This document shows, in pieces, positions 17,926 to 29,093 of a stretch of DNA of 32,057 nucleotides. The notes under the pieces are model-generated. The model searched no databases. It saw nothing but the letters and a program-made list of their open reading frames with translations, and was not told the origin of the DNA. Origin of the DNA: Candidatus Eiseniibacteriota bacterium (GTDB lineage: Bacteria > Joyebacterota > Joyebacteria > Joyebacterales > Joyebacteraceae). The translations under genes and the position numbers were made by a program. Location: positions 1 to 32,057 of the forward strand of contig JBDRFG010000099.1 in the NCBI GenBank assembly GCA_043819135.1, given 5' to 3'. Each line of letters begins with the position of its first letter. Within the stretch, counting starts at the first letter, position 1.

Positions 17926-17954
17926 TTGACAATCGCACGGAAACGCAGTATCCT
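17926..17954 (+). promoter_or_regulatory. sigma70 promoter for the pro-peptide/activator pair
   Basis: TTGACA-17 nt-TATCCT. Confidence 0.75.
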
Positions 17955-18099
17955 CCCTTTGGACTCTGCAGTGAGAACCCCACCAGATAGCTGTGCTGGC
18001 TCGTCGCCAGACGCTTCGGTTGACTTCCGGACTCGGAGGCGACGAGGCTCAAGTTGAACGGACCGGTACCAGATCATATGCCCCCCAAGGAGGATGATC

Positions 18100-18468
18100 A
18101 TGAGCGCGAGGAGATTGCTCGCCCTGCTTGTGGTCGTTGCGTTGGGCCTGCTTCTGATGTGCCCCACGGCGCTTTCGCGCCCCGAACATCCACTCGTTGA
18201 CGCCACCGGTGCTGGTGACGCGACCAACCCAGGCGACGAAGAGGATCCGGATATTCCGAACGGGAATATCGACGGGGACGACGACAACTGGGACAAGTCC
18301 GCCGTCAACGGATACACGGTGGCGGAGTCGTTCGGCGAAAGCGGTGGTGTGGTGTGGGGAGCAGACACCAGCGGATCCGAGGACGTGCTTTCTCGGATGG
18401 AGATCAGTCTGAGCATGCGGCTCACACTGCTCCTGCAGTCGTGGGTCATTTTCTCCGGCTTGCGCTGA
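18100..18468 (+). CDS. Small secreted acidic protein (122 aa), putative signalling pro-peptide
   Basis: AAGGAGG RBS 6 nt before ATG 18100, signal peptide ending PTALS, acidic GDEEDPD/GDDDNWDK core and hydrophobic C-terminal helix. Confidence 0.8.
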   Translation: MSARRLLALLVVVALGLLLMCPTALSRPEHPLVDATGAGDATNPGDEEDPDIPNGNIDGDDDNWDKSAVNGYTVAESFGESGGVVWGADTSGSEDVLSRMEISLSMRLTLLLQSWVIFSGLR

Positions 18469-21579: not shown

Positions 21580-21779
21580 GCCAGCCCGAGAGGCTCCTCG
21601 CGCCACCCTGCCACGGCCAGCGGACACCCCCCAACACGCCCCCCCAGACATGCGGAACGCCTACGGGCGGACCGCTCGTCGTTACTCTCCCGCGGTACTG
21701 GACGCCGTCGCGCCCTCGCGCCACCGCAACCCACTCTCTTCTCCACCACGAGCCGCCCGCCAGCGTTTCGGCAGCTTGC

Positions 21780-21828
21780 TGACACTGTCAAGACGTCGGG
21801 AACCCGACGACCTGTCGTGATCGTGACG
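21780..21828. promoter_or_regulatory. Candidate upstream activator sequences (tandem YGTC-N8-GACG palindromes)
   Basis: CGTCGGGAACCCGACG (21794-21809), TGTCGTGATCGTGACG (21813-21828) and TGACACTGTCA (21780-21790), about 200 bp upstream of a sigma54 promoter. Confidence 0.5.
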
Positions 21829-22021
21829 TTCCCCTAACCTCCGATATCCGAACAGGATAGGTGCGCCTCATGGGCCGGGTCCGCGACGGTGTGTCGCGGA
21901 CGCTCCGAAACGCCCATAACACTGCATTCGGCACGAACTCAAAAAGGGCTTTAACTGCTTGTCACTGAAGGAGTTACAGTCTGTCTGCGGCAGCCCGACT
22001 CGGGCGCTGCAGACCGGGTAC

Positions 22022-22037
22022 TGGCACGCTTAATGCG
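22022..22037 (+). promoter_or_regulatory. sigma54 (-24/-12) promoter
   Basis: TGGCACGCTTAATGCG, GG-N10-GC, downstream of a sigma54 activator gene. Confidence 0.8.
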
Positions 22038-22047
22038 GTTCTGAGAG

Positions 22048-22528
22048 GCGGAGCGCTCTTGCGCGGGGGTTGGTCCAGTTGTCCACAGCATCTGATCTGT
22101 CGTGGAGAGCGCACCAGAAACTGACAGTCGAGGCCCGTCGTGTAGGAGCGACGACCTGGCTGCGGCTGACGTGTTGCGGCTGACGCGCCCGGACCAGGAT
22201 GAAGCTGGAAGGAGGTGGTGCGGCAGGAGGAACCCGACCCGACTCTGGTGAAGGGGTTCCCCAGCTGTTGGGTCAGCTACTGCAGAGTTCCCCGGAGTTC
22301 TTCGCGACTCCCCGCCGTCTGTCTCAAGACGGGGGCCCGTCCGCCAGCAGGCCTCCTGACCTTAGTTCGGGCGGGGCGCCGACCAGACTCAACTTCGCGT
22401 TAGTATCGTCGGGCCCGTTGACTCTTCGCTGTCTATCCGGTAGGGGGTGTGTTCCGTTTCGGACAGCGAGGAAGCCGGCGGGCTCGACGTACGAAGGAAT
22501 CCCCGCGGCCGGCGGCCGCGGGGGTTTC
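22048..22528 (+). ncRNA. Putative sigma54-driven structured RNA of unknown family
   Basis: Bounded by a sigma54 promoter and a terminator-like hairpin, with no convincing ORF, several stems and a GGA cluster. Confidence 0.4.
22498..22528. terminator. GC-rich hairpin, probable (bidirectional) terminator
   Basis: AATCCCCGCGGCC-GGC-GGCCGCGGGGGTT followed by TC. Confidence 0.65.
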
Positions 22529-22578: not shown

Positions 22579-24624
22579 CTACTCCATGATGTGGTCGAAG
22601 ATGAATGTGTAGGAGCCGGCGAGGTCGCCGGTGAGCTTCGCACGGCCGGACACGCCGTGCCCGAACTCGGTCTCCTCTTTGTAGAGAACGTCCTTCCCGA
22701 GCTTCTCCAGGACCCAGGCGAATCTGCGCGGGTCCGACGGGGGAACGCGCGGATCGTTGGACCCGGCGGTGACGAGGAGCGGCACGCGGACGTTGTCCGC
22801 GAAATACACGGCGGAAAGCCCGCGGGTCATATCGCTTCCCAGAGGGCCGAACTCCGCCTCGTGCGCCTCCACGAACCCGGGATTGCCGTGTTCGATCGTC
22901 CAGTCGATGTCGGACACCCCGACCTCCGATATCCCGCAGGCGAACTTGTCGGGTGCGTGTACGGCCAGGTAGTTGACGGTGTACCCTCCGTACGAAGCTC
23001 CCCAGATCGCCGTCCGCTCGGGGCTCGTCCAACCCTCGGCAACGAGATAGTCCAGAGCGGCCTCGGCGTCTTCGAGCGCCTGATAGCGACCGTCGAGATT
23101 GTCGGCTCGCTCCCACGTGGGGCCATACCCCGTTGAGCCCCTGACGTTCGGGAAGCAGAAGACCACACCACGCGCGAGCGCGAAGGCGATGTTCCTCTGG
23201 AACGCCGGAACGCTCTGGCCCGAGGGACCGCCGTGGTAGTTGACGATGCAGGGGTTCGAGCCGTCGCGGGCCGCGCCCTCCGGGACGTAGAGGAGAGCGG
23301 GTACCAAAGTCCCGTCAGTACTGGGATACCGCACGACGTTGACCTCCACGCCGCTGAAATCGTGTCCGAACGTGGATATCGACGCCACCTGCTCCAGTTC
23401 ACTCCCACTGACGCCGAGGTAGAGCACGGTCGGCGGTGTGGAAGGGGAGTTGAAGTCGAACACCATGTCGCCGCTGTCGTTGACCGACGGCGACCCTATG
23501 ATGCCCACGCCGGGCGCCGGGAGTTCGGTGACATTTCCCTCAAGGTCCAGCCTGACCAATTCGTTGTAGCCGTCCCTGTTGAGGGCGACTCCGGCGACGC
23601 CGGTCTCGCGACTGAAGGTGATGCCGTCTATCTCAACGTCGGGAGCGTAGATCACGCGCATCTCGTTGGGTTCGACCGGCGCGTCGGCGGGGTCCATCAG
23701 CGTCACCTTGTAGAATTCGTCCTCGCCCGACAGAGCATCCGACACCATCAGGATGCTGCCGTCACTCGCGTAGTAGGCCTCCCTGACCTCGATGTAACCC
23801 GTGAGATCGGAGGTCTCCCTGTTCGACACGTCGTATTCGAAAAGCTGTAACTCGGAAGCGGTCTTGAAGCGGACACAGAGGACCTTGCCGTTGTGGTAGT
23901 CGACGGGGCCGAACGGCATCGTCTCCGTGTAGAGTGTCTCCACCGCCGCCGAAGCGAGGTCGTAGCGGGCCAGCCAGAAGCCCCCCCGTTTCAGGTCCAT
24001 GATGTGGAAGAAGAAACCGTCGTCGCCGTCGCGGAAGGGGGACGAGAACGCCAGTTCGCGGTCCACGAGCAGAGGCCTGTAAGTTCCGTCCCTCTCGAAC
24101 CGGTATATGTCCCAGTTCTCGTCGCCCTGCTCCATCGCCTCCAGGTAGAGGTAGTTCCCGTCGGGATCGAGGACGTAGTCGCCGAGGTCCATGTTTCGCT
24201 CTGTCCATGCGTTCGGGGTGATCTGCGTCGGCCACCCCCACGGCTCGTCGACGTAGAAGAGCGCTCCCCTCTCGCCGGTGATGCGCATCTGGAAGTAGAT
24301 CCGACCCGTGTTGTCGAGGTCGGGTGATGCGACGTAGTCGATGGACAGCACGTCGCTCAGATCAGCGTAGACGGACGGCCAGTTCGACGACGACGTGATG
24401 CGCTCGTCCGTGATCTGATTGTGTCTCTCGATGAACTCGGCGACGCGCGAGTCGTCCGTGGCGATCCAGGGATCGACCTCCCGGAGAAGAGCCTCGACGC
24501 GGTCTTCTCCCGCATACTCCGACGCTCCGCCGGAGGCGCCCAGCGCTGTCGGCGCACCCATCACTGCAGAAATCGCGACGACCGTCATTACTGCGAACGT
24601 AGCTGCACGAGCCTGCCTCCTCAT
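22579..24624 (-). CDS. Secreted S9 family (prolyl oligopeptidase/acylaminoacyl peptidase-like) serine peptidase
   Basis: Signal peptide, propeller-like N-domain, YHGGP, PNVRGSTGYG, WGASYGG (Ser), NDPRV (Asp) and GHG (His). AAGGAGG RBS. Confidence 0.95.
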   Translation of the reverse strand: MRRQARAATFAVMTVVAISAVMGAPTALGASGGASEYAGEDRVEALLREVDPWIATDDSRVAEFIERHNQITDERITSSSNWPSVYADLSDVLSIDYVASPDLDNTGRIYFQMRITGERGALFYVDEPWGWPTQITPNAWTERNMDLGDYVLDPDGNYLYLEAMEQGDENWDIYRFERDGTYRPLLVDRELAFSSPFRDGDDGFFFHIMDLKRGGFWLARYDLASAAVETLYTETMPFGPVDYHNGKVLCVRFKTASELQLFEYDVSNRETSDLTGYIEVREAYYASDGSILMVSDALSGEDEFYKVTLMDPADAPVEPNEMRVIYAPDVEIDGITFSRETGVAGVALNRDGYNELVRLDLEGNVTELPAPGVGIIGSPSVNDSGDMVFDFNSPSTPPTVLYLGVSGSELEQVASISTFGHDFSGVEVNVVRYPSTDGTLVPALLYVPEGAARDGSNPCIVNYHGGPSGQSVPAFQRNIAFALARGVVFCFPNVRGSTGYGPTWERADNLDGRYQALEDAEAALDYLVAEGWTSPERTAIWGASYGGYTVNYLAVHAPDKFACGISEVGVSDIDWTIEHGNPGFVEAHEAEFGPLGSDMTRGLSAVYFADNVRVPLLVTAGSNDPRVPPSDPRRFAWVLEKLGKDVLYKEETEFGHGVSGRAKLTGDLAGSYTFIFDHIME

Positions 24625-24829
24625 GACCACCCTCCTTGTGCCACCTGTTACAGCGCCGTCTCATGGCCCCCGTAGGTAGGACACGACCCACTGCGAGGCG
24701 GTTTCGCGGCTCGACGCGGGCGCGACGCTCACGATTGTGCTATCCTCTGTCGTTCCCTTTCCTCAAGGACAGTTCGACGAGACGGCGGCCGGCCGGACCG
24801 GACCGCACGTCCCAGGAGTGACAGCGGAA

Positions 24830-25480
24830 GTGTCCCGGAAGAGAGCCTACATCACGACGAAGGGGTTTGCCAGAGAAGCCGAGGAGCTCGTGCGGTGGTC
24901 GAGCGATGCCGGTCGGGTCGCGTTCACCCCGGGTGCAACGGCCCTTCTTGTCGTGGACATGCAGGGCTGGTTCCTTGAGCCCACGTCGCACGCGTATCTT
25001 CCCAGCGCCGCACACATCGTCCCGGGCCTGGTCTCTCTCTCCCGGGCGTTCCGGGAGAACGAGCTGCCGGTGATCTTCACCAGGCATTTGAATACCGAGG
25101 AGGACGCCGGGGCTCTGGGGTTGTGGTGGAGCGACCTCATTCGCGTGGAGGACCCTCTGAGCGAAATAGCGTCCGCCGTGGACACGTCCGGGGGTATCGT
25201 TCTCACGAAGAACCAGTACGACGCCTTCCACGGAACGAGCCTGGAGGACATGCTGAGAGAACGCGGCGTCAAACGGATCGTGGTGACCGGTGTGGCGACG
25301 CACCTCTGCTGTGAGACCACCGCGCGCTCAGCCTTCGTGCGCGGTTTCGAGGTGACGTTCCCGGTCGACGGCACGGCCACATACGATGAGCACCATCACC
25401 TCGCGACTCTTCTGAATCTGTCGCACGGTTTCGCCACGGCGACGAGGGTCCAGGATCTGATCGATGCGGCTCGAGGTTGA
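24830..25480 (+). CDS. Isochorismatase-family cysteine hydrolase
   Basis: ALLVVDMQ, K..YDAF and GVATHLCCETTARSAF. Start uncertain (GTG 24830 or 24818). Confidence 0.92.
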   Translation: MSRKRAYITTKGFAREAEELVRWSSDAGRVAFTPGATALLVVDMQGWFLEPTSHAYLPSAAHIVPGLVSLSRAFRENELPVIFTRHLNTEEDAGALGLWWSDLIRVEDPLSEIASAVDTSGGIVLTKNQYDAFHGTSLEDMLRERGVKRIVVTGVATHLCCETTARSAFVRGFEVTFPVDGTATYDEHHHLATLLNLSHGFATATRVQDLIDAARG

Positions 25481-25572
25481 GTCGCGATGGGCGGCGGCTC
25501 GGGGTGCGGGATGGTCGTTCCCGCGGGGACCGGGGGGAGAGCGACGAAGATGACGGCAGCGGAGACATCGCC

Positions 25573-26538
25573 GTGAGACCGGAGACGACACACCACGCGG
25601 GTATCATCGGAGCGGGACCGGCCGGCATCGCGGCCGCCGTCCAGCTCGCGCGGCATGGCGTGAGGCCCGTCGTGTTCGAGAAGGGATTGACCGGCGGGCT
25701 GCTTCGCACCGCCTGGCGCGTCGAGAACTTCCCGGGATTCCCGGGAGGCATCTCTGGACCCGACCTGGCGGGGTTTCTCGACGAGCAGCTTTGCGCCTCC
25801 GGGGCCCAGCTGATCGACGAGGAGGTTGCGTTACTCGATCGCGAGGACGGGCTCCTGGTATGCAGGACAGGCGGCGGGGCGCTGCGGTTCGGAGCCGTGA
25901 TAGTGGCTTCCGGGACCCGACCCCGTCGGGTGATCGACATCGACGTCTCCGAGGACGCGCGGGAGAGGATCTTCCATGAGGCAGGTGAACTCCGGGGAGT
26001 CGCGGGTGCCCGCATCGTCGTCGTAGGTGGAGGTGACGCGGCCTTCGACTACGCACTCGGTCTCTCGGAGGAGAACGACGTCACGATACTGATCAGGGGC
26101 GGTTCCGCGCGCTGCCTTCCTCTTCTTGAGTCGAGGTCACGGTCGCGCGAGCGCGTGACCGTGAGGGTACAGACTCGGCTGACAGCGATTGCCCTCGAGA
26201 CGGGAGGACGTCTGAAACTGACGTCCGTGTCCCCCTCCGCAGCAGGCGGTGTTCGCAAGGACACCGCCGCCGATTACGTCGTCCTGGCTGCCGGAAGAGA
26301 GCCGGACGACGGGTTCCTTTCGGAGGAGGTGCGCCTGAACGCTCCCACGTTCGAGGCGCGCCGGGAATTGCTCTTCGCGGGCGATGTCCGGAGTGGTATC
26401 TTCCGCCAGGCGTCCATTGCGGCGGGTCAGGGCACGCACGCCGCGATGAAGGTGGCGGCGATGCTGCGGGACAGTGTCGGGGCGGACGTCGGCTTCGGAA
26501 AGACGCGCGGGGCGCGTTCGCGCGGGGAGTCGCATTGA
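25573..26538 (+). CDS. Thioredoxin-reductase-like FAD/NAD(P) oxidoreductase lacking CxxC
   Basis: IIGAGPAG, VENFPGF, VASG, VVGGGDAA and FAGDV..Q...AAGQG. GTG 25573 after GGAG (TTG 25477 is an alternative start). Confidence 0.88.
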   Translation: MRPETTHHAGIIGAGPAGIAAAVQLARHGVRPVVFEKGLTGGLLRTAWRVENFPGFPGGISGPDLAGFLDEQLCASGAQLIDEEVALLDREDGLLVCRTGGGALRFGAVIVASGTRPRRVIDIDVSEDARERIFHEAGELRGVAGARIVVVGGGDAAFDYALGLSEENDVTILIRGGSARCLPLLESRSRSRERVTVRVQTRLTAIALETGGRLKLTSVSPSAAGGVRKDTAADYVVLAAGREPDDGFLSEEVRLNAPTFEARRELLFAGDVRSGIFRQASIAAGQGTHAAMKVAAMLRDSVGADVGFGKTRGARSRGESH

Positions 26539-27509
26539 GAGTAGTCGCATCCACGGGTAGAGAGGACATAGCGGTGGCCTACGTGGCCGAGACGGCCGGA
26601 GGCCGCCTCGTCGAATTCACTGAGGCCGTACAGCCACCGGTTCCCCGAGAGCTGAAGTGGGTTCTCATCGTCTCGAGCCTGTACGGTTGCCCGGTACGTT
26701 GCGCGATCTGCGACGCCGGCGACAGGTACGAGGGCAAAATGAGCGCCGCGGAGATCCTCGAACAGATCGACTTCCTGGTCGACCGGCGCTACCCGGACAG
26801 GCGCGTGCCGTCCCAGAAGTTCAAGATCCAGTTCGCCAGGGTGGGAGAGCCCTCTCTCAATCCCGCCGTCCTCGACGTGCTGACGGAACTGCCGCTCCGT
26901 TATGATGCCCCCGGGCTCATGCCCTCCGTCTCGAGCGTCGCTCCGGTCGGATGTGACGCGTTCTTCGAACGGCTTCGCGACATCAAGAATCGGCTGTACG
27001 GCAGCGGGCGGTTCCAGCTCCAATTCTCCATTCACACGACGGATGAGTCACTCCGCGACCGACTGATCCCGATAAGGAAGTGGGGACTCGATCGCATCGG
27101 CAACTACGGCGCCGGATTCCGCGACGCGGGCGATCGCAAGGTGACACTGAACTTCGCGCTTGCCCGCGACACACCGGTCGACCCCGACGTCCTGCTTCGT
27201 TGGTTCGATCCGGCGGACTTCCTCGTTAAGATAACGCCCGTCAATCCGACACACCGCGCGGTCATGAACGGCATCGTGTCCCGCGTCGATCCCGGAAGAG
27301 AGGAGGCGGGTGCCGAGATCGAGCGCCTGCGGTCCGCGGGGTACGACGTGCTTCTCAGTATCGGTGAACTCGAAGAGAACCGGATCGGAAGCAACTGCGG
27401 GCAATACATACAGACGCACCTCGAGGCAAAGAAGCGGCTCGGGGACGGCTACGCGTGCGTGGATGACGTCGTGATCGCCGCGGCGTCACCGGGTGACGCC
27501 CGGAAGTGA
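26535..27509 (+). CDS. Radical SAM protein, divergent RlmN/Cfr-like
   Basis: SSLYGCPVRCAICDAG (CxxxCxxC), EILEQI, FARVGEP, LQFSIH..RDRLIP and C-terminal IGSNCGQ. Confidence 0.9.
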   Translation: MRVVASTGREDIAVAYVAETAGGRLVEFTEAVQPPVPRELKWVLIVSSLYGCPVRCAICDAGDRYEGKMSAAEILEQIDFLVDRRYPDRRVPSQKFKIQFARVGEPSLNPAVLDVLTELPLRYDAPGLMPSVSSVAPVGCDAFFERLRDIKNRLYGSGRFQLQFSIHTTDESLRDRLIPIRKWGLDRIGNYGAGFRDAGDRKVTLNFALARDTPVDPDVLLRWFDPADFLVKITPVNPTHRAVMNGIVSRVDPGREEAGAEIERLRSAGYDVLLSIGELEENRIGSNCGQYIQTHLEAKKRLGDGYACVDDVVIAAASPGDARK

Positions 27510-27578
27510 CGGAGGCGTGGGTTCCAACGTGCGGAATAGACCGCGCCGACGCGTGTAGTATCAGCAGGAGGTGACGCC

Positions 27579-28022
27579 ATGGAATTCCAGATCTGGTGGC
27601 TGTGGTTCGCGCTCGCGGCCGTGTTCATCATCGGCGAGGTTTTCACCGAGGGGTTCTTCCTGCTCTGGTTCGGCGTCGGCGCCGGCATTTCGGGCGTGCT
27701 CGCGCTCGTCGGCGTTGGTCCGGCATGGCAGTGGGCCGTGTTCGTAGTGGCTTCCGGGATGCTCTTCGCCGTCTCCAGGCGGTTCGCCGAGAGGTTCACG
27801 CAAAAGCAGCCACCCGGCATCGGCGCCGACCGGCTCATCGGCAGGCGCGGTGTTGTGCTCGAGCAGATCGACAACGTGCAGAATGCGGGGAAGGTCATGA
27901 TCGACAAGGAGCAGTGGCGGGCCGAGAGCGAGGACGAGAGCGTCATCGAGTCGGGCGCCCGCATAGAGGTCACGCGTCAGGACGGCACTCACGCGGTCGT
28001 ACGCGTTCTCAAGGAGGGTTAG
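27579..28022 (+). CDS. NfeD-like membrane protein
   Basis: W..LA..F.IGE.FT.GFFLLWFG TM region and OB-fold LIGRRG..GKV..EQWRA, adjacent to an SPFH gene. Confidence 0.92.
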   Translation: MEFQIWWLWFALAAVFIIGEVFTEGFFLLWFGVGAGISGVLALVGVGPAWQWAVFVVASGMLFAVSRRFAERFTQKQPPGIGADRLIGRRGVVLEQIDNVQNAGKVMIDKEQWRAESEDESVIESGARIEVTRQDGTHAVVRVLKEG

Positions 28023-28026
28023 CCAC

Positions 28027-28953
28027 ATGGTAGGGCTCTTCATTATTGCGGGAGTGCTCATCCTGGTCCTGGCCTCGAGGGGCATCAAGATCGTCAGGCC
28101 CTGGCAGAAGGGACTCATCGAGAGGCTGGGCAAGTACCAGAGAACGGCGGACAGCGGCCTGACGATCATCGTTCCGTTCATGGAGAAGATGATCAAGGTG
28201 GACATGCGCGAGCAGGTCGTCGACGTGCCGCCTCAAGGTGTCATCACCAAGGACAACGTGGTGGTCGAGGTGGATGCGGTCGTCTACTTCGAGGTGACCG
28301 ATCCGGTCAAGGTCACGTACAACGTCGCGAGCTTCTATATCGCCGCTACGAAGCTCGCGCAGACCAATCTCAGGAACCTGATCGGCGACCTTGCACTCGA
28401 CGAGTCGCTGACGTCGCGCGAGATCATCAACACGAAGCTCCGCGAGATCCTCGATGACGCGACCGACAAGTGGGGAACGAAGGTCACGAGAGTCGAGCTG
28501 CAGAGGATCGAGCCGCCGGCGGACGTCACGGAAGCGATGCACAGGCAGATGAAATCCGAGCGCAACAGGCGATCGATGATCCTCGAGGCCGAGGGCCACA
28601 AGCAGTCGGCGATCCTCAAGGCGGAGGGCGACGCCGAGGCCGTCAGGCGCGTGGCGGAGGCGGAGAAGTTCCGCAAGCTGACCGTGGCGGCCGGTGAGGC
28701 GGAGGCCGTCAGCACGGTCTACAGAGCCATTCACGAGGGGCGGCCGACGAACGACCTCATCGCGATCAAGTACCTGCAGACGCTCGAAAAGATCGCGGAC
28801 GGGCGTGCCACGAAGATCTTCCTGCCGTTGGATACATCCGGCGTGCTCGGGAGCATCGCCGGCATCGGGGAGCTGCTTAAGGGGAAGATCGGCGACTCGG
28901 TAGGGGTCGGACCCCAGGGGGGCTCGGCGCACGCGGATGAGGGAACCGACTAA
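28027..28953 (+). CDS. SPFH/Band 7 (stomatin/QmcA-like) protein
   Basis: ERLGKY, VITKDNV, QTNLR..IG, WG.KVTRVE and AM..QM..ER..R..ILEAEG. Confidence 0.95.
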   Translation: MVGLFIIAGVLILVLASRGIKIVRPWQKGLIERLGKYQRTADSGLTIIVPFMEKMIKVDMREQVVDVPPQGVITKDNVVVEVDAVVYFEVTDPVKVTYNVASFYIAATKLAQTNLRNLIGDLALDESLTSREIINTKLREILDDATDKWGTKVTRVELQRIEPPADVTEAMHRQMKSERNRRSMILEAEGHKQSAILKAEGDAEAVRRVAEAEKFRKLTVAAGEAEAVSTVYRAIHEGRPTNDLIAIKYLQTLEKIADGRATKIFLPLDTSGVLGSIAGIGELLKGKIGDSVGVGPQGGSAHADEGTD

Positions 28954-28996
28954 CCGCGCGCAGGCCCGTTTCGGAGACCGCTGAACCGCATTTGGG

Positions 28997-29033
28997 AGAG
29001 GGGCCGCTGCGAAGGCGCAGCGGCCCCTCTATT
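28997..29033 (+). terminator. 15-bp perfect hairpin, probable terminator
   Basis: AGAGGGGCCGCTGCG-AAGG-CGCAGCGGCCCCTCT followed by ATT. Confidence 0.75.
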
Positions 29034-29093
29034 CGTACGGTTGAGGCCGTAGCGTCCTTGACCGAGGTGGAAGCGCGTGAGTAAGATTCATCC

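Follow-up and report, generated by a model that had tools for sequence, protein, structure and literature searches.

The 32,057-nt window (the whole stretch of DNA analysed here) very probably encodes a sigma-54-driven non-coding RNA, placed directly behind the gene of a TPR-domain sigma-54 activator. We consider it likely that this is a real, conserved non-coding RNA gene, its transcription being deduced from sequence comparison, and regard it as a new RNA family within a known kind of circuit. Feedback by pairing of the RNA with the leader of its own activator operon is the reading that we favour by a narrow margin. The first-pass annotation of this DNA had proposed a structured, non-coding output of the neighbouring activator's sigma-54 promoter, and this was supported: the promoter is kept, helices covary and no ORF is conserved.

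Layout of the locus and conservation of the promoter

The comparison set comprised 31 genomes in 8 genera, and searches at the family and the phylum level gave the identical set. A homolog of the TPR-type activator was present in all 31. In a quick tree (48 rows, with the type-A copy of G004 and several type-B copies left out) the activators fell into types A (the window locus), B and C, type A being split from the rest by a branch of support 100. The genus of the window genome (G000, of which the window is contig C99) is labelled g1; type-A loci were also found in genera g4, g7 and g8, and all 17 genomes of these four genera carry a type-A activator. RNA type tracked the activator clade. Comparison of the loci shows a strict linkage of the predicted RNA to one activator clade.

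The sigma-54 promoter noted in the first pass was confirmed as TGGCAC-N6-TGC at 22022-22036, and it is kept in 18/18 orthologous loci (17 genomes plus the metagenome locus L197), where it sits 305-449 nt past the activator stop in all four genera. The pattern occurs 24 times in the 2.69-Mb genome, counting both strands, and rpoN was found there. The pair of palindromes behind the activator gene is also visible by eye at other-genus and paralogous loci, and the window genome has 2 places with the paired pattern. Between palindromes and promoter lies a candidate site which we take to resemble the IHF consensus.

No receiver domain was reported for the 1029-aa activator by the domain search. Among the 25 NCBIfam matches listed for it there was no equivalog above cut-off, and the LuxO model scored 239 bits against a cut-off of 800. 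None of the 80 generic sigma-54 activators returned by a search of genome contigs was a full-length relative. A motif scan of metagenomes gave 15 matches, two of them true homologs (L188 and L197) and 13 unrelated; the same scan of viral contigs gave 0.

Upstream, the TTGAC-17-TAnnnT pattern of the operon promoter was present in 14/14 readable type-A leaders (G004, G005 and G045 were left out of this set). The small secreted protein matched no Pfam or NCBIfam family; the ORF finder started its gene at 18094, and the SD spacing fits 18100.

Table 1. Features of the window locus, with positions counted from the first nucleotide of the window.
Feature	Position	Strand	Remarks
Sigma-70-type promoter of the secreted-protein/activator operon	17926..17954	+	TTGACA, 17 nt, TATCCT; predicted 5' end ~17961
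Operon leader 5' end, predicted RNA target	17961..17986	+	Box 1 17961-17973; C-rich box 2 17973-17986; prediction
Small secreted protein gene	18100..18468	+	Signal peptide, acidic linker, core GDDDNW(D), hydrophobic C-terminal stretch
Sigma-54 enhancer-binding protein, 1029 aa	18490..21579	+	TPR array, AAA+ domain (716-880), Fis-type HTH
Two GTC-N8-GAC palindromes, putative activator binding sites	21795..21827	+	Kept in genus alignment; binding inferred
IHF-like site, between palindromes and promoter	21952..21976	.	Candidate
Sigma-54 -24/-12 motif	22022..22036	+	TGGCAC-N6-TGC; predicted start ~22048
Predicted non-coding RNA, ~445 nt	22048..22490	+	Sequence comparison
P1, long 5' hairpin	22053..22112	+	Consensus fold
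P2 hairpin, AGGA-containing loop	22125..22162	+	Covariation score
Near-invariant motif GCGGCTGACG	22162..22185	+	Immediately 3' of P2; tandem copy at 22176
Segment complementary to leader 17961-17973	22278..22290	+	13 bp; sequence match
P5, long terminal hairpin, G-rich apical loop	22407..22490	+	Covariation; leader-pairing part in genus g4
GC-rich hairpin	22498..22526	.	Window genome only; role inferred
Prolyl oligopeptidase (S9) gene, convergent	22579..24630	-	Outside conserved unit

A predicted structured RNA with no conserved reading frame

The RNA interval was 75-81% identical in 7/7 same-genus genomes. Its fold was better than that of shuffled sequences (z -2.96, with 1/100 shuffles equally good), and across 8 genomes the z values of the RNA ran from -1.8 to -5.1, those of the upstream stretch from -0.1 to -2.8; taken by itself, the window genome gave -2.4 for this upstream control and -2.1 for the RNA, the control thus scoring equally well. 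The four stems drawn in the first pass were all found where it had placed them, the first in a corrected register: in its conserved form GTCGT pairs with GCGAC to enclose a GTAGGA loop, with a second helix closing it, and the ACGAC arm is altered in most relatives. The AGCGC...GCGC arms of P1 recur in single-sequence folds from g4 and g7.

Covariation was tested against shuffles across four genera, and the P5 and P2 helices covary. Structures came from RNAalifold on the alignments that were scored, with one closing pair of P2 added by hand. In P5, 93.8% of cells were paired (17 rows), against 39-57% in slid controls; double changes occurred in 7/25 pairs (reached by 6/500 shuffles) and in 29 cells (reached by 0/500). 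In P2, 93.8% of cells were likewise paired, with double changes in 4/9 pairs (16 rows), and the covariation score exceeded 500/500 shuffles; the count of pairs was not significant (119/500). These scores are inflated by kinship, the rows being non-independent and drawn from four genera only. A P5 model, built from these same loci, found one match per genome, at the type-A locus, in 16/31 genomes (the G002 locus is cut by a contig end) and none in the 14 genomes of genera lacking a type-A activator; G013 had an extra weak match on the opposite strand of the identical hairpin. The P2 model gave 12 weak extra matches (E 4e-5 to 0.01).

The absence of a convincing ORF was upheld: over 10 rows, ORFs 22199 and 22215 lacked codon-level conservation, and both showed wandering stops and frameshifting indels. 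ORF 22199 had 5 synonymous against 14 non-synonymous variant codons and had lost its ATG in 4/10 rows, while ORF 22215 had 6 against 14 and ranged in length from 21 to 78 aa. Inspection of 18 loci revealed no ORF common to the genera, and 22199 and 22215 were not seen in g4, g7 or g8. A peptide message that has decayed or has a dual function, comparable to the paralogous transcript with its 24-aa peptide, is therefore very improbable in our estimation: a paralogous locus does hold a conserved 24-aa ORF, and in g1 an SD with GTG at 22215-22218 is kept in 10/10 rows, but against this stand the dominance of non-synonymous changes, the shifting stops and indels, and the missing counterpart in the other three genera.

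The terminator-like hairpin described at the end of the interval exists, and is specific to the window genome rather than part of the shared RNA. The convergent next gene, which had also been reported, was confirmed as encoding a prolyl-oligopeptidase-family protein. Hairpin and peptidase were both absent from six same-genus relatives, those with contigs extending to this point, so the shared RNA ends at about 22490, giving about 445 nt; the hairpin is probably a terminator shared with the convergent peptidase. Reading the downstream DNA of G001, G004, G005 and G006 showed that a same-strand gene, isochorismatase-like by eye, directly follows the RNA, and the peptidase therefore looks inserted. 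In the window, positions 24737-27509 hold an isochorismatase-family gene (Pfam), followed by what appear by eye to be an FAD oxidoreductase and a radical SAM gene. Across loci the predicted RNA measures 420-600 nt, with longer 3' extensions in g4 and g8.

An RNA run from groundwater contained one identical 380-nt contig, at 21687-22066 (depth 2.4), upstream of the RNA; no assembled contig of three RNA runs lay over 22067-22500, and contigs cannot show absence. This sole contig, the roughly equal conservation of the upstream promoter region within the genus, and the same-strand downstream gene of several g1 relatives would suit a reading without an RNA gene, as a conserved DNA element or a downstream gene's 5' leader. 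We hold this to be highly unlikely, since G-U-tolerant and double changes keep the plus-strand helices across genera, downstream genes differ (convergent in the window genome and, by eye, in g4 and g8), and the g8 RNAs have a clear terminator hairpin at their end.

The Rfam check was also carried out, and neither the window nor six related loci matched a model at gathering score; ranked by E-value there was a single chance match, outside the interval. Housekeeping RNAs (RNase P, tmRNA, SRP, 6S) were rejected as identities, no family model matching at the locus; RNase P, tmRNA and large SRP were found elsewhere in the genome, as was a sub-threshold 6S-like match. Two full-length tmRNA matches were seen in the window genome (C109:11547-11918 and C26:256-627), reflecting either duplicate assembly, contamination or a mobile copy. 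We found no description of the RNA in the accessible literature; supplements of motif surveys may hold it under another name.

Proposed titration of an RNA-binding protein

The first pass had suggested a protein-titrating RNA acting through GGA motifs, and this part of it gained no support: GGA was at chance, csrA was nearly absent and hfq was not found. The seven GGA triplets counted in 22145-22231 are there, and this 87-nt cluster is marginal (p 0.046). Over 22048-22528, where the density had been called only modestly above chance, there are 13 against 12.2 ± 2.6 expected from 1000 shuffles (p 0.45). Only one AGGA loop is widely kept, and it is degenerate in genus g8.

In the searches for the two protein genes, csrA was present in 2/31 family genomes and in 1/17 RNA-bearing genomes, and hfq in 0/31, with 20/31 genomes at least 90% complete. 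The csrA-family gene of the RNA-bearing set (G000:C167:5010-5156) adjoins a DnaB-like helicase gene on a 5.7-kb contig and is the only csrA in its genus of 8 genomes; we read its context as prophage-like. No LSm gene was found in the window genome. The search for RNA-binding proteins covered csrA, hfq and LSm.

A CsrB/RsmY/RsmZ sponge was rejected on the GGA count, the single csrA among 17 RNA-bearing genomes and the lack of an Rfam match; CrcZ/CrcY identity was rejected because hfq was found in 0/31 genomes, no receiver domain was reported for the activator and no Rfam CrcZ match was obtained. Titration more broadly, whether of CsrA/Rsm, of Hfq-Crc or of another RNA-binding protein reading the invariant motif and the AGGA loop, is in our view quite unlikely. 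The layout resembles cbrB-crcZ as presented in the accessible text of PMC8871633, and the motif behind P2 hardly varies and in several genomes comes as a tandem pair, features frequent in binding sites; the chance-level GGA and the scarcity of csrA and hfq weigh the other way. Pairing with the leader of the activator operon is a better fit to the evidence than titration.

Predicted pairing with the leader of the operon

The 13-bp complementarity listed in Table 1 falls on the predicted first nucleotides of the operon message, and an RNA-leader duplex is predicted there. Leader start sites were placed from promoter motifs. Plain hybrid energy was significant in 0/14 genomes (p 0.065-0.83), and the longest perfect match reached p <0.05 in 4/14. 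An accessibility-aware score with a 170-nt target placed the cognate leader at ranks 1, 1, 1, 2, 4, 10, 19, 27 and 32 among 40, that is at 1-4 in 5/9 genomes. When leaders were cut into 30-nt tiles and scored for accessibility, the first tile was the best in 11/14 genomes, and in 10/14 it outscored at least 98 out of 100 shuffles (Fisher p 1.5e-4 on genus medians), in a test set up post hoc, the match having already been noticed, and with our own heuristic scoring code. The first tile was not the best in genus g4 (G010 p 0.83).

Cognate 5' ends gave -10.4 to -14.4 kcal/mol in 10/10 RNAs, against means of -4.7 to -8.7 kcal/mol for other-genus leaders (10 RNAs) and -1.1 to -8.6 kcal/mol for the untranscribed upstream stretch used as control. 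Among 378 promoter-like 5' ends of the window genome the cognate ranked 4, three others outranking it. Every genus's RNA has a segment complementary to its own leader, at a GC content (64%) at which G-run/C-run complementarity is easily obtained. The segment varies by genus, from the central region (g1 and g7) to the P5 loop (g4) and the 3' extension (g8), and the predicted paired leader nucleotides are 1-13 in g1, 1-23 in g7 and further in for g8 and g4.

An RNA that acts mainly in trans on other mRNAs, in the manner of Qrr or RNAIII, through the G-rich P5 loop, CU-rich loops or the invariant motif, would make pairing with its own leader minor or a matter of chance. The RNA is large and multi-domain, with several conserved unpaired motifs; the P5 loop provides 7 of the 12 best-scoring 5' ends, including that of the paralogous operon (rank 8 of 378 in the window genome), and a costly switch with feedback as its sole output would be odd. 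Against this, a genome scan for complements of the conserved motifs gave no convincing target gene (the strict motif behind P2 has no 5'-region complement in the window genome), and pairing of the type-A RNA with the leader of the paralogous operon was no better than shuffles in 6/8 genomes; that candidate was rejected, and because of this failure no cross-pairing is claimed. We think a mainly trans-acting role unlikely, if less so than titration, and it is compatible with feedback on the operon's own leader.

In the feedback reading, which we hold to be slightly the more probable course, the sigma-70 promoter would yield a single message for the small secreted protein and the TPR-domain sigma-54 activator. 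Once activated, the activator would bind the palindrome pair that follows its gene and open the sigma-54 promoter, which would yield the folded non-coding RNA of about 445 nt. This RNA would pair with the first 15-50 nt of the operon message, at least 100 nt upstream of the start codon, and so feed back on its own activator.

The paired site is no closer than 100 nt to the start codon, and in silico folds of type-A leaders with the 5' box blocked left the SD sequestered, so a direct block of ribosomes is unlikely; release of an anti-SD by the 5' box, unseen in the folds, was likewise rejected. An effect on decay or on leader folding is what is left. By analogy, we lean slightly towards stabilisation of the message through shielding of its 5' end from decay, giving a self-reinforcing switch, over repression. 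In the accessible text of PMC5419742, RoxS stabilises yflS, and FasX ska, by pairing at the very 5' end, and any mRNA could in this way be protected against RppH, RNase J1 or RNase E; feedback of Qrr on luxO, as the accessible text of PMC3262071 has it, is the negative precedent. RNase E/G and RNase III were present in the window genome and RNase J was not found there, so the RoxS route is not transferable as it is. At 18090-18145 the start region of the small protein is predicted to lie in a hairpin with signal-peptide codons conserved at the nucleotide level, and the type-B equivalents are alike.

The secreted partner and the paralogous loci

The activator gene adjoins the small secreted protein gene as in the RRNPP pro-peptide layout. 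In the secreted protein the core GDDDxW is invariant, reading GDDDNW at type-A and GDDDRW at type-B loci, so that the core tracks the activator clade. This may fit a ligand precursor; shared descent of the two neighbours would explain it equally well. A complex prediction for the TPR region (25-545) with the core (40-85) spoke neither for nor against an interaction (score 0.02, mark 0.32).

At type-C loci (L063, L179 and L062, genus g3) the sigma-54 promoter fires directly into secreted-protein genes. In G024 the gene so targeted encodes the GDDDxW protein that belongs to another activator in tandem, and a cascade is suggested.

A type-B cassette (G000:C62; L065, L204; activator at 26001-29093, minus strand) runs from a sigma-54 promoter through a structured leader and an ORF for a conserved 24-aa hydrophobic peptide to an 867-aa protein. 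The peptide signature was present in 21/22 type-B loci, the remaining one being cut by a contig end. The radical SAM/SPASM part of the 867-aa protein has PapB-type peptide maturases as its nearest match (below cut-off); the N-terminal part matched no family and by eye resembles a prenyl synthase. The cassette, a candidate peptide-modification cluster, also includes an FG-GAP propeller and an ABC exporter.

In the type-B RNA an invariant G-run/GUCCGGU hairpin is predicted to pair with the leader of its own operon, at a CCGGAC/C-run box close to the 5' end; this one site is used in 11/12 genomes, in one of these 11 only partly. Type-B leaders (L032-L042, L053-L059 and L065) also contain a conserved hairpin whose loop, by eye, can pair alternatively with a downstream CCCGGCG; it is possibly a switch or pseudoknot beside the RNA pairing site.

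A wider reading is tentative, and we would sooner doubt it than accept it: the TPR sigma-54 activator would read the secreted core motif, and a large Hfq-independent RNA would lock the switch, on or off, by pairing at the 5' end of its own operon, in two insulated paralogous channels. Each channel would have its own core motif, RNA and leader, and one would also drive the 24-aa peptide with the radical-SAM/ABC-exporter cluster. No comparable signalling module (secreted core, TPR sigma-54 activator, RNA output) was found in the literature searched.

Comparison with known systems

The agr/RNAIII system of Staphylococcus offers a likeness in that a large RNA is the output of what may here too be a peptide-sensing switch, and the paralogous RNA described above also carries an ORF for a short hydrophobic peptide. 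The agr system works through a histidine kinase and AgrA. RRNPP receptors similarly place a TPR sensor beside a small secreted protein, peptide sensing being putative in the present case, and they are not sigma-54 AAA+ activators. CrcZ is similar in size to the RNA described here.

In the CbrB-CrcZ system of Pseudomonadaceae, according to the accessible text of PMC8871633, the sRNA gene lies directly downstream of the sigma-54 activator gene as a sigma-N-dependent unit of its own, which is also the arrangement here. The same text has CrcZ acting by binding and sequestering Hfq/Crc, and CbrB as a two-component response regulator, whereas the present activator has a TPR array and no reported receiver domain. 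In the LuxO-Qrr system of Vibrio a sigma-54-driven sRNA base-pairs and feeds back on the activator mRNA, as is predicted here; the Qrr RNAs are, in the accessible text of PMC3262071, short, Hfq-associated repressors of luxO, and LuxO is switched by a phosphorelay, while the present RNAs span 420-600 nt, Hfq was not detected and the activator is of the TPR type. Unlike that of Qrr, the predicted pairing site is the 5' end of the transcript, far from the start codon. Qrr identity was rejected, given no Rfam Qrr match and a LuxO model score far below its cut-off (239 bits against 800).

RoxS-yflS and FasX-ska are Firmicute pairs in which the RNAs act on other genes; the accessible text of PMC5419742 gives the RNase J1 route as shown for RoxS and suggested for FasX, and RNase J was not found here. 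Neither RNA has sequence or structural kinship with ours. Pxr of the Myxococcus PxrR-Pxr pair is, in the part of its description available, a short three-stem RNA, and the present RNA has no Rfam match.

A sigma-54 activator with an adjacent sRNA is thus already known from Pseudomonas, Vibrio and myxobacteria, the first two cases relying on Hfq and phosphorylation. This layout occurs here in a small uncultured phylum in which Hfq is undetected and CsrA nearly missing, with a TPR sensor and a secreted partner in place of the kinase. If the pairing holds, RNA feedback on a signalling operon could be tested here in a system that needs no chaperone, and the natural variants of four genera and two paralogs would supply compensatory pairs.
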